From an uncultured Nitrososphaerales archaeon (lineage in GTDB: Archaea; Thermoproteota; Nitrososphaeria; Nitrososphaerales; Nitrososphaeraceae): DNA of 64,000 bases. Shown in pieces: positions 10,901 through 11,620 of this stretch. The DNA lies in NCBI GenBank assembly GCA_963709405.1, contig CAVPXM010000055.1:1-64000 (forward strand). The letters run 5' to 3'. The notes below the pieces were generated by a model. The model saw only the letters and a list, made by a program, of their open reading frames with translations. It was not told the origin of the DNA and did not search any database. The position numbers and the translations under genes are program-made. Within the stretch, counting starts at the first letter, position 1. Each line of letters starts with the position of its first letter.

Positions 10901-11620
10901 ATGACACTATTTTTCTTATAATCACGCATGACCTCATACTCAATCTGCTTCCAATGTCCGACATATTTCTCTATAAGCACTTGTCCGACCATACTTAACG
11001 CGAGGCCTCTTTGAACAATTTCTTGGAGCTCGTACTCATTATACGCTACTCCACCTCCCCTTCCTCCAAGGGTATACGCAACGCGGATCATGACTGGGTA
11101 GCCGATACGGCTGGCTGTAGTAAGAGCTTCTTCCACCGAATAGCAAGGGGCACTATCCAATACAGGAACGCCAGATTTGATCATTGCCTCTTTAAACAAT
11201 TGTCTATCCTCAGTAACTTCTATACCACTTACTGGAGTACCGAGTACTCTAATTCCATATTTCTGCAAGATGCCCTCTTTTTCTAAAGATACCCCACAAT
11301 TAAGGGCGGTCTGGCCACCAAACGCCAACATAATAGCATCCGGCCGTTCACACTCTATGACCTGCTTGACAAAACTGGTGGTGATAGGGAGCAAATACAC
11401 TTTGTCCGCAAATTTCTTATCAGTCTGTATTGTTGCTATATTCGGATTAATGAGAACGCTGCCTACGTCATCTTCACTAAGAGCTTTGAGACATTGCGAA
11501 CCGGAGTAGTCGAATTAGCGGTCGATCAATTTATCATGACCAACTTTCGCCCGCTTCTCCAATCTTAATTGCCCCGCTACCCAGTACCAGTACCTTTCTT
11601 ATCGTATCATCCCGTGTCAT
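7960..11620 (-). CDS. carB: Carbamoyl-phosphate synthase large subunit in two exons (11620-11546, 11514-7960); 1209 aa if spliced
   Basis: Exon 1 [25 protein letters not shown] joins exon 2 FDYSGSQCLKAL...NPNIATIQTD. Two ATP-grasp halves (HTGDN, [29 protein letters not shown]) and a C-terminal MGS domain. Confidence 0.95.
11515..11545 (-). other. Candidate 31-nt bulge-helix-bulge mRNA intron in carB
   Basis: Insert AGUUGGUCAUGAUAAAUUGAUCGACCGCUAA contains in-frame UGA UAA. Central helix GGCG/CGCU, bulges AAA and AAU, intron stem GUUGGUCA/UGAUCGAC. Cuts after the second base of each bulge give GGC GAA|UUC GAC. Confidence 0.85.

Follow-up and report, generated by a model that had tools for sequence, protein, structure and literature searches.

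How can an archaeal gene yield full-length carbamoyl-phosphate synthase when its reading frame is broken shortly after the start codon? This question is raised by carB, on the minus strand of a 64,000-nt stretch (hereafter the window; positions 1 to 64,000 of contig CAVPXM010000055.1, assembly GCA_963709405.1) from an uncultured soil archaeon of the Nitrososphaerales. An original prediction, made from the letters of the window, had proposed that the break represents a bulge-helix-bulge (BHB) intron located within the carB message. Our analysis leads to the same answer: with a probability of about 0.93, carB carries a BHB intron that is spliced by the host, through the tRNA splicing endonuclease (EndA) and RtcB, and whose removal is required for full-length CarB. 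At carB codon 25, the carA-carB pre-mRNA would adopt a BHB fold, with a distal exon-exon helix as its brace. The endonuclease would cleave after the second base of each bulge, RtcB would ligate the exons, and the joined message alone would encode the full-length enzyme. We infer both the agents of this reaction and its essential nature. In most of the close relatives, too, carB has an intron at this position, so that production of the enzyme very probably depends on splicing of the carB mRNA.

Structure of the interrupted carB gene

An AGGAGG motif (11630-11625) precedes an ATG at 11620, from which 25 codons (75 nt, ending in Gly-Glu) lead into a 31-nt insert, exactly as originally claimed. 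The insert (11515-11545) splits carB between Glu25 and Phe26, in phase 0, and the unspliced frame runs into two stops three codons into it. When the insert is excised, the downstream frame resumes in register as predicted: the product is an open frame of 1209 aa, in which the E-F-D motif is restored and exon 2 is open over 1184 codons. When the 31-nt cut was placed at 13 different offsets, E-F-D was recovered at 0, +1, and +2 only, and the product was identical in these three cases.

Exon 1 corresponds to positions 3-24 of the TIGR01369 profile, and the match to exon 2 (1350 bits) takes up the profile at position 25, so no residue is lost or duplicated at the junction. In comparison with solved structures, the junction corresponds to E. 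coli CarB 25|26 and human CPS1 440|441: exon 2 starts at E. coli residue 26 (human 441), and exon 1 aligns, although with weak E-values of 0.19-0.34, to residues 5-24 of E. coli CarB and 422-440 of human CPS1. This position falls within the tunnel loop of carbamoyl-phosphate synthase, which spans human CPS1 430-443 (PMC4655335). The 1209-aa CarB extends about 110 residues beyond the length that most close database matches (mostly 1076 aa as called) would reach once exon 1 is added to them, and shows low-complexity stretches near residues 415-495 and 630-685.

An intact second carB elsewhere, with the present copy decaying, would have spoken against an intron. None was found in the assembly (4.83 Mb, 91% complete), which contains a single full-length carB. 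The other match (G000:C25:1-1371) was considered as a substitute and rejected, being a bacterial-type C-terminal half of 457 codons at a contig end; this fragment possibly reflects contamination or a chimera. Neither of two exon-2 products was present in an exact look-up in the protein collection.

Turning to RNA structure, the minimum-energy fold (-24.1 kcal/mol) contains the 4-bp central helix, the 3-nt first bulge, and the 8-bp intron stem of the original prediction (the second bulge is considered below). Archaeal splicing endonucleases cut after the second base of each bulge (PMC2738675), and this rule does yield the in-frame carB product. The site combines a central 4-bp helix, two bulges, and borders located after the second bulge base, in a relaxed form of the motif. 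In a whole-genome scan for BHB-shaped segments whose removal joins reading frames, the carB site ranked first of 1829 (lowest core pair probability 0.97), which exceeds chance. No recognisably conserved junction was seen at the 14 other sites with a core probability above 0.5, in a comparison made by eye, without homology test, and covering strict motifs only.

A self-splicing intron of group I or II was also considered and rejected: 31 nt compare with a catalytic core of several hundred nt, and Rfam gave no match over this 31-nt intron at E-values up to 10. An Rfam match at 13227-13279 (E 3.9) was dismissed as chance. Feature coordinates are collected in Table 1.

Table 1. Features of the carB locus and related genes in the window
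Feature	Position	Strand	Basis
carB exon 1 (Met1-Glu25)	11546..11620	-	TIGR01369 positions 3-24; sequence
Probable BHB intron, 31 nt, phase 0, two in-frame stops	11515..11545	-	Sequence, fold, one RNA-library contig
carB exon 2 (Phe26 to stop)	7960..11514	-	TIGR01369 from position 25, 1350 bits
Shine-Dalgarno-like AGGAGG of carB, within the 3' end of carA	11625..11630	-	Sequence
Central 4-bp helix, exon strand; bulge 1 = 11547-11545	11548..11551	-	Fold; 69 junctions
Central helix, intron strand; bulge 2 = 11516-11514	11517..11520	-	Fold; double-sided changes in 5 genomes
Intron stem-loop, 8-bp stem and 8-nt loop, length-variable among relatives	11521..11544	-	Fold; 69 junctions
Distal exon-exon helix, 5' arm	11557..11563	-	Five inner pairs kept in 69/69 intron alleles vs 5/35 intronless
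Distal exon-exon helix, 3' arm	11500..11506	-	Junction comparison
carA, 14-nt overlap with carB start, probable ATT start at 13017	11607..13017	-	Profile and comparison
EndA subunit gene, unlinked to carB	36926..37534	+	PF01974, E 6e-28

Same-site inserts in relatives and constraint on the junction

An alignment of carB 5' ends across relatives was expected to reveal inserts at the same site with compensatory base changes, and such is the case. The closest named relatives belong to Nitrososphaeraceae. An insert-blind pattern matched 144 of 150 genomes of this family, 139 of which carry an insert at the carB site by hand count (137 of 142 when the unpublished genomes G430 and G440 are excluded). 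The five without insert all belong to one other genus, and the insert is present in all six matched genomes of the archaeon's own genus. At the level of the order, 324 of 401 genomes matched. Among the 150 matches listed (own family not among them; 178 further matches exist), 65 have an insert and 85 have none by hand count, and one marine genus is intronless in 25 of its 31 members among the matches listed, also counted by hand. Outside the order, a same-site insert was found in 3 of 341 genomes with an exact pattern requiring a gap of at least 10, which detects intron alleles only and thus provides no intronless denominator.

Individual loci show the same pattern. In DNA-matched relatives (43 of 61 genomes with a DNA match, a search biased toward intron alleles), the insert lies at the identical codon boundary in 30 of 30 loci. 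Among 80 named loci, 42 have an insert, 35 have none, and three were left unscored by the script. Overall, a same-site insert is present in 72 of the 107 scored loci, with a length of 18-52 nt; gap length and loop sequence are variable, while the borders are conserved. Carriers include records of Nitrosopumilus (among them Nitrosopumilus sp. b1 and Ca. Nitrosopumilus salarius BD31), Nitrosarchaeum, Nitrosotenuis, Nitrosotalea, Cenarchaeum, Nitrosocosmicus, Nitrosopolaris, and Nitrososphaera. Intronless loci include Bathyarchaeia records, Ca. Nitrosocaldus schleperae, Ca. Nitrososphaera sp. FF02, and Ca. Nitrosopumilus limneticus.

In a 128-row FastTree phylogeny of exon 2, made without 4 short rows and 7 duplicates, intronless alleles are nested inside intron-bearing clades, with at least nine changes, which fits an old intron and repeated loss. 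This tree is based on exon 2 only and on a sampling that favours intron alleles, the L044 branch is inflated by a frameshift, and the change counts are blind to gain versus loss. The carB intron thus appears to be old in Nitrososphaerales and to have been lost several times, although gains are also compatible with the tree. Pairs of intronless alleles differ at 4-8 of 20 junction sites, and these alleles may result from separate precise losses or from a shared recombination tract. Two loci are placed at odds with their titles: L057 (titled Heimdallarchaeota, on a 2.5-kb contig) groups with Nitrosopumilaceae carB and L058 (titled Nitrosopumilus) with Nitrosocosmicus carB, each with the matching intron type, and both are probably mis-binned or mis-titled.

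A different carB insert, of 22 nt, was observed at a single locus of Candidatus Aenigmatarchaeota archaeon JZ-1_201709_bins_39 (L106, approximately 1442-1475). It lies inside an Ile codon, about seven codons (22 nt) upstream of the site studied here, and its structure combines a 4-bp central helix with a pair of 3-nt bulges and a stem of 4 bp. Its removal by the BHB rule restores the motif, which suggests a second, independent intron site in the CarB tunnel loop.

Constraint on the structure was evaluated by comparing 69 distinct intron junctions (72 before removal of duplicates) with 35 intronless ones. Pairs 2-4 of the central helix are formed in all 69 junctions, pair 1 being a G-A mismatch in 8 of them. 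The first three pairs of the intron stem are also formed in all 69, and stem pairs 2-4 are formed in 203 of 207 cells, versus 170.7 +/- 2.8 (maximum 180) when arms are shuffled among introns. Changes on both sides of the central helix were found as well. In two genomes (G037 and G038), the Gly24 codon has changed from GGC to GGT and is matched by a change in the intron, across the exon-intron border. Similarly, the two middle pairs are swapped on both strands in three genomes from outside the order that have Ala at the Gly24 position (G587, G617, and G623).

The exons are constrained too. The distal exon-exon helix is kept with the intron (Table 1), and the Gly24 codon is GGC in 69 of 69 intron alleles versus 6 of 35 intronless ones. 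Within 10 codons of the junction, synonymous differences number 0-3 of 20 in four intron/intron pairs (12-61% in downstream windows), as against 10-15 of 19-20 in eleven intron/intronless pairs. Judging from these sequence comparisons, synonymous exon sites near the junction are under constraint in intron alleles. Finally, all 22 distinct introns with a length multiple of three (3n) contain an in-frame stop. For the 3n introns of the junction set, a stop occurs in frame 0 in 19 of 19, versus 1 and 5 of 19 in the other frames (shuffle mean 6.0).

RNA contigs and the splicing enzymes of the host

Twenty-four sequencing runs were listed, five of them RNA; three RNA runs (X16, X17, and X18) and one DNA run (X6) were examined, as assembled contigs. 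A joined sequence of the kind expected from splicing, which the original prediction proposed to seek in RNA, was found once. A 245-nt contig of X18, a random-primed soil metatranscriptome, joins 11514 to 11546 at a depth of 4.47 and skips exactly the 31 nt of 11515-11545, with 56 nt on the short side and a 2-base junction ambiguity equal to that of the shifted cuts. Its exon-1 side is identical to the window at 175 of 189 positions, whereas no other species sampled from the genus exceeds 135 of 189 (ungapped), and it has a variant at 11579 in common with an intron-retaining contig of X16. The small share of X17 had no junction coverage, and the DNA run X6 ends 11 nt inside the intron. Three more apparent skips in X16 (115-241 nt) came from divergent contigs at an 82% setting and were ignored.

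The genome encodes the machinery that splicing by EndA and RtcB would involve. It contains two EndA genes (PF01974), which we take to be a catalytic and a structural subunit according to the Tyr/His/Lys triad, an intact rtcB gene (PF01139), and several intron-bearing tRNA calls, while its cbf5 gene is uninterrupted. The proposal that these enzymes act on carB is thus supported by gene content, their roles being deduced from sequence. Three rtcB-like loci exist in all (contigs C53, C22, and C20; L113-L115): one is intact, one has a single-base frameshift, and one is fragmentary with a stop, neither break being intron-like. Three near-identical intron-bearing tRNA-Tyr(GTA) loci adjoin tRNA-Met on three contigs, indicating either duplication or strain mixing.

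Alternative explanations and known splicing systems

Several observations weigh against host splicing of carB. The second bulge has 4 nt in the minimum-energy fold, and not the 3 nt closed by a G-U pair that had been claimed, which amounts to a slight relaxation of the motif on its exon side. The intron is retained in a 576-nt contig of the RNA library X16, where even coverage of the region suggests the presence of DNA or pre-mRNA. Splicing is supported by one contig from one of three RNA runs, without matched DNA, and contigs are blind to strand and level; an unsampled intronless strain could yield the X18 contig (5 of 144 family genomes are intronless, in one other genus). Stops in frame 0 also occur in 35 of 45 non-3n introns, so shared ancestry explains part of the stop signal and, as the genomes are kin, shuffles overstate significance. 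Lastly, the Tyr28 codon is TAC in 69 of 69 junctions, yet TAT (a G-U pair) in some intron alleles of the family.

The alternative that survives best would be an addition to host splicing, not a replacement for it: the intron would act as a regulatory switch, splicing efficiency tying the supply of carbamoyl-phosphate (for pyrimidine and arginine) to tRNA/rRNA splicing load or to nitrogen status. Retention in 139 of 144 family genomes is consistent with such a role, as are the codon-25 position and obligatory stops, which make unspliced mRNA non-productive, the intron-retaining contig of X16, the apparent use of a rare ATT/ATA start by the operon partner carA in this order, and the negative-regulator role proposed for the cbf5 intron (PMC2738675). 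However, alleles that lack the intron branch from within intron-bearing groups and are frequent in one marine genus (25 of 31 among the matches listed), and across 107 loci the loop has no conserved sequence or length suggestive of a ligand or protein site. We regard a switch as a tentative possibility. Most likely, the host-spliced intron is a tolerated passenger, dispensable as its losses indicate, which strong selection keeps spliceable because it lies within an invariant loop of a needed enzyme.

Current mobility, with spread by a neighbouring homing endonuclease, is improbable. Patchy presence within genera, inserts at this site in 3 of 341 genomes from beyond the order, the second insert site 22 nt upstream in Aenigmatarchaeota carB, and the invariant motif as target would all agree with it. 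However, the reading frame that runs into the carB start belongs to carA in the window, and it is carA-like by eye in 104 of 107 loci (three have too little flank) and in L116-L118. No homing endonuclease gene adjoins the intron site at any of these loci, unlinked endonucleases not being part of the search. The intron may nonetheless have originated by past homing.

Two further readings are very unlikely. In the first, the RNA stays unspliced and ribosomes hop over the insert, as the stop codon and hairpin closely following the take-off codon might suggest. Translational bypass of the phage T4 gene 60 type requires matching take-off and landing codons, but the triplet before Phe26 begins with T, C, or A, and never with G, in 69 of 69 junctions, and thus never matches the Glu take-off codon. 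Gap length also ranges from 18 to 52 nt, a joined RNA contig is present, and what has been conserved is the geometry of an endonuclease site. In the second, carB would be a pseudogene, or exon 1 would go unused, with translation beginning in exon 2. Other genes are broken in this assembly, and automatic gene callers do yield an exon-2-only product; but the protein sequence of exon 1 is conserved, with additional constraint on its synonymous sites, exon 2 is intact over 1184 codons with no other complete carB in the 91%-complete assembly, and an exon-2-only product would be missing its first strand along with half of the tunnel loop. As for an assembly or sequencing artefact, single-base indel errors do occur in the assembly, one of them in adjoining carA, but the comparative data refute it: homologous same-site inserts are present in well over a hundred independent genomes, and an independent-run contig spans the insert gap-free.

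The carA gene, directly upstream of carB by profile match, illustrates the difference, which the original prediction had pointed out, between the intron and indel errors. One surplus base near 12768-12769 causes a frameshift in carA; it is missing from the DNA run X6 and the RNA run X16, so this frameshift is an assembly error, unlike the intron. The same-genus locus L002 shows other single-base breaks in carA and carB. In a hand count of 94 scored loci (window region 13015-13027, minus strand), 49 have an apparent ATT or ATA start of carA, which follows an AGGGT-like word at a distance of 4-10 nt and lies 35-36 codons ahead of a conserved motif, and 48 lack ATG, GTG, and TTG altogether 22-50 codons upstream. 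Bathyarchaeia carA has TTG at the corresponding position. This rare start is unrelated to carB intron status, and a literature search on an ATT/ATA start of carA in this order found nothing. CarA also has a long C-terminal tail (11607-11830), common to the genus.

The BHB intron of cbf5 is said to have been described in Watanabe 2002 and Yoshinari 2006. As found in Desulfurococcales and Sulfolobales (Yokobori et al. 2009, PMC2738675), it is the closest known system. Both introns are short (16-44 nt in cbf5, 17-52 nt in carB with order-level matches included) and lie in coding sequence at a functionally critical motif. They share a relaxed BHB, with cleavage (predicted in the case of carB) after the second base of the bulge, variable interiors with conserved borders, some 3n lengths, lineage-specific loss, and hosts with two EndA genes (PMC2738675). 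However, carB encodes a metabolic and not an RNA-modifying enzyme, belongs to Nitrososphaerales, and is split between codons in phase 0, whereas the cbf5 intron lies inside a catalytic codon; the latter is proven by in vitro cleavage and cDNA (PMC2738675), while the carB intron is known from sequence and one RNA contig. The BHB intron in the 5'-UTR of Haloferax volcanii HVO_1309 (Schwarz et al. 2020, PMC7714728; PMC10485636) is likewise an mRNA substrate of the splicing endonuclease, but is untranslated (PMC7714728), whereas the carB intron breaks the reading frame, so that the protein would depend on splicing. Archaeal tRNA and rRNA introns have the same BHB motif and presumably the same enzymes; in carB the substrate is an mRNA, and a distal exon-exon helix made by synonymous codon choices replaces the tRNA body.

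Reviews up to 2023 count two archaeal mRNAs spliced by the tRNA endonuclease, one of them within coding sequence, and the available text names cbf5 and Haloferax HVO_1309 only (PMC10485636, PMC7714728). No further spliced archaeal mRNA appears in the available portions of PMC13149111, PMC12397907, PMC12558985, and bioRxiv 10.64898/2026.10.13.758758. A search for a carB intron in the literature found none, most subscription journals, supplements, and the putative-intron predictions cited by PMC2738675 being outside its scope. The carB intron is thus probably unpublished, although it belongs to the known class of archaeal BHB mRNA introns.

If true, host splicing of carB would bring a core metabolic gene of abundant soil and marine ammonia oxidisers into the set of spliced archaeal mRNAs. 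It would also expose a systematic annotation error in carB N-termini: in public protein records, the N-terminus of 118 of the 120 best matches (a list biased toward matches that cover exon 2 from the first residue on) results from out-of-frame reading of the intron. As intron-bearing and intronless relatives coexist within single genera, the questions raised by cbf5 introns (role, gain, and loss) become directly testable. More speculatively, and with doubtful odds, endonuclease-mediated mRNA splicing might act as a control point at which ammonia-oxidising archaea adjust their central metabolism. The carB intron would then gate carbamoyl-phosphate synthesis by nitrogen status or splicing capacity, and the tunnel loop of CarB might be a hotspot that such introns have invaded repeatedly across archaeal phyla. 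Were this control-point reading true, it would provide an archaeal counterpart of regulated non-spliceosomal splicing.
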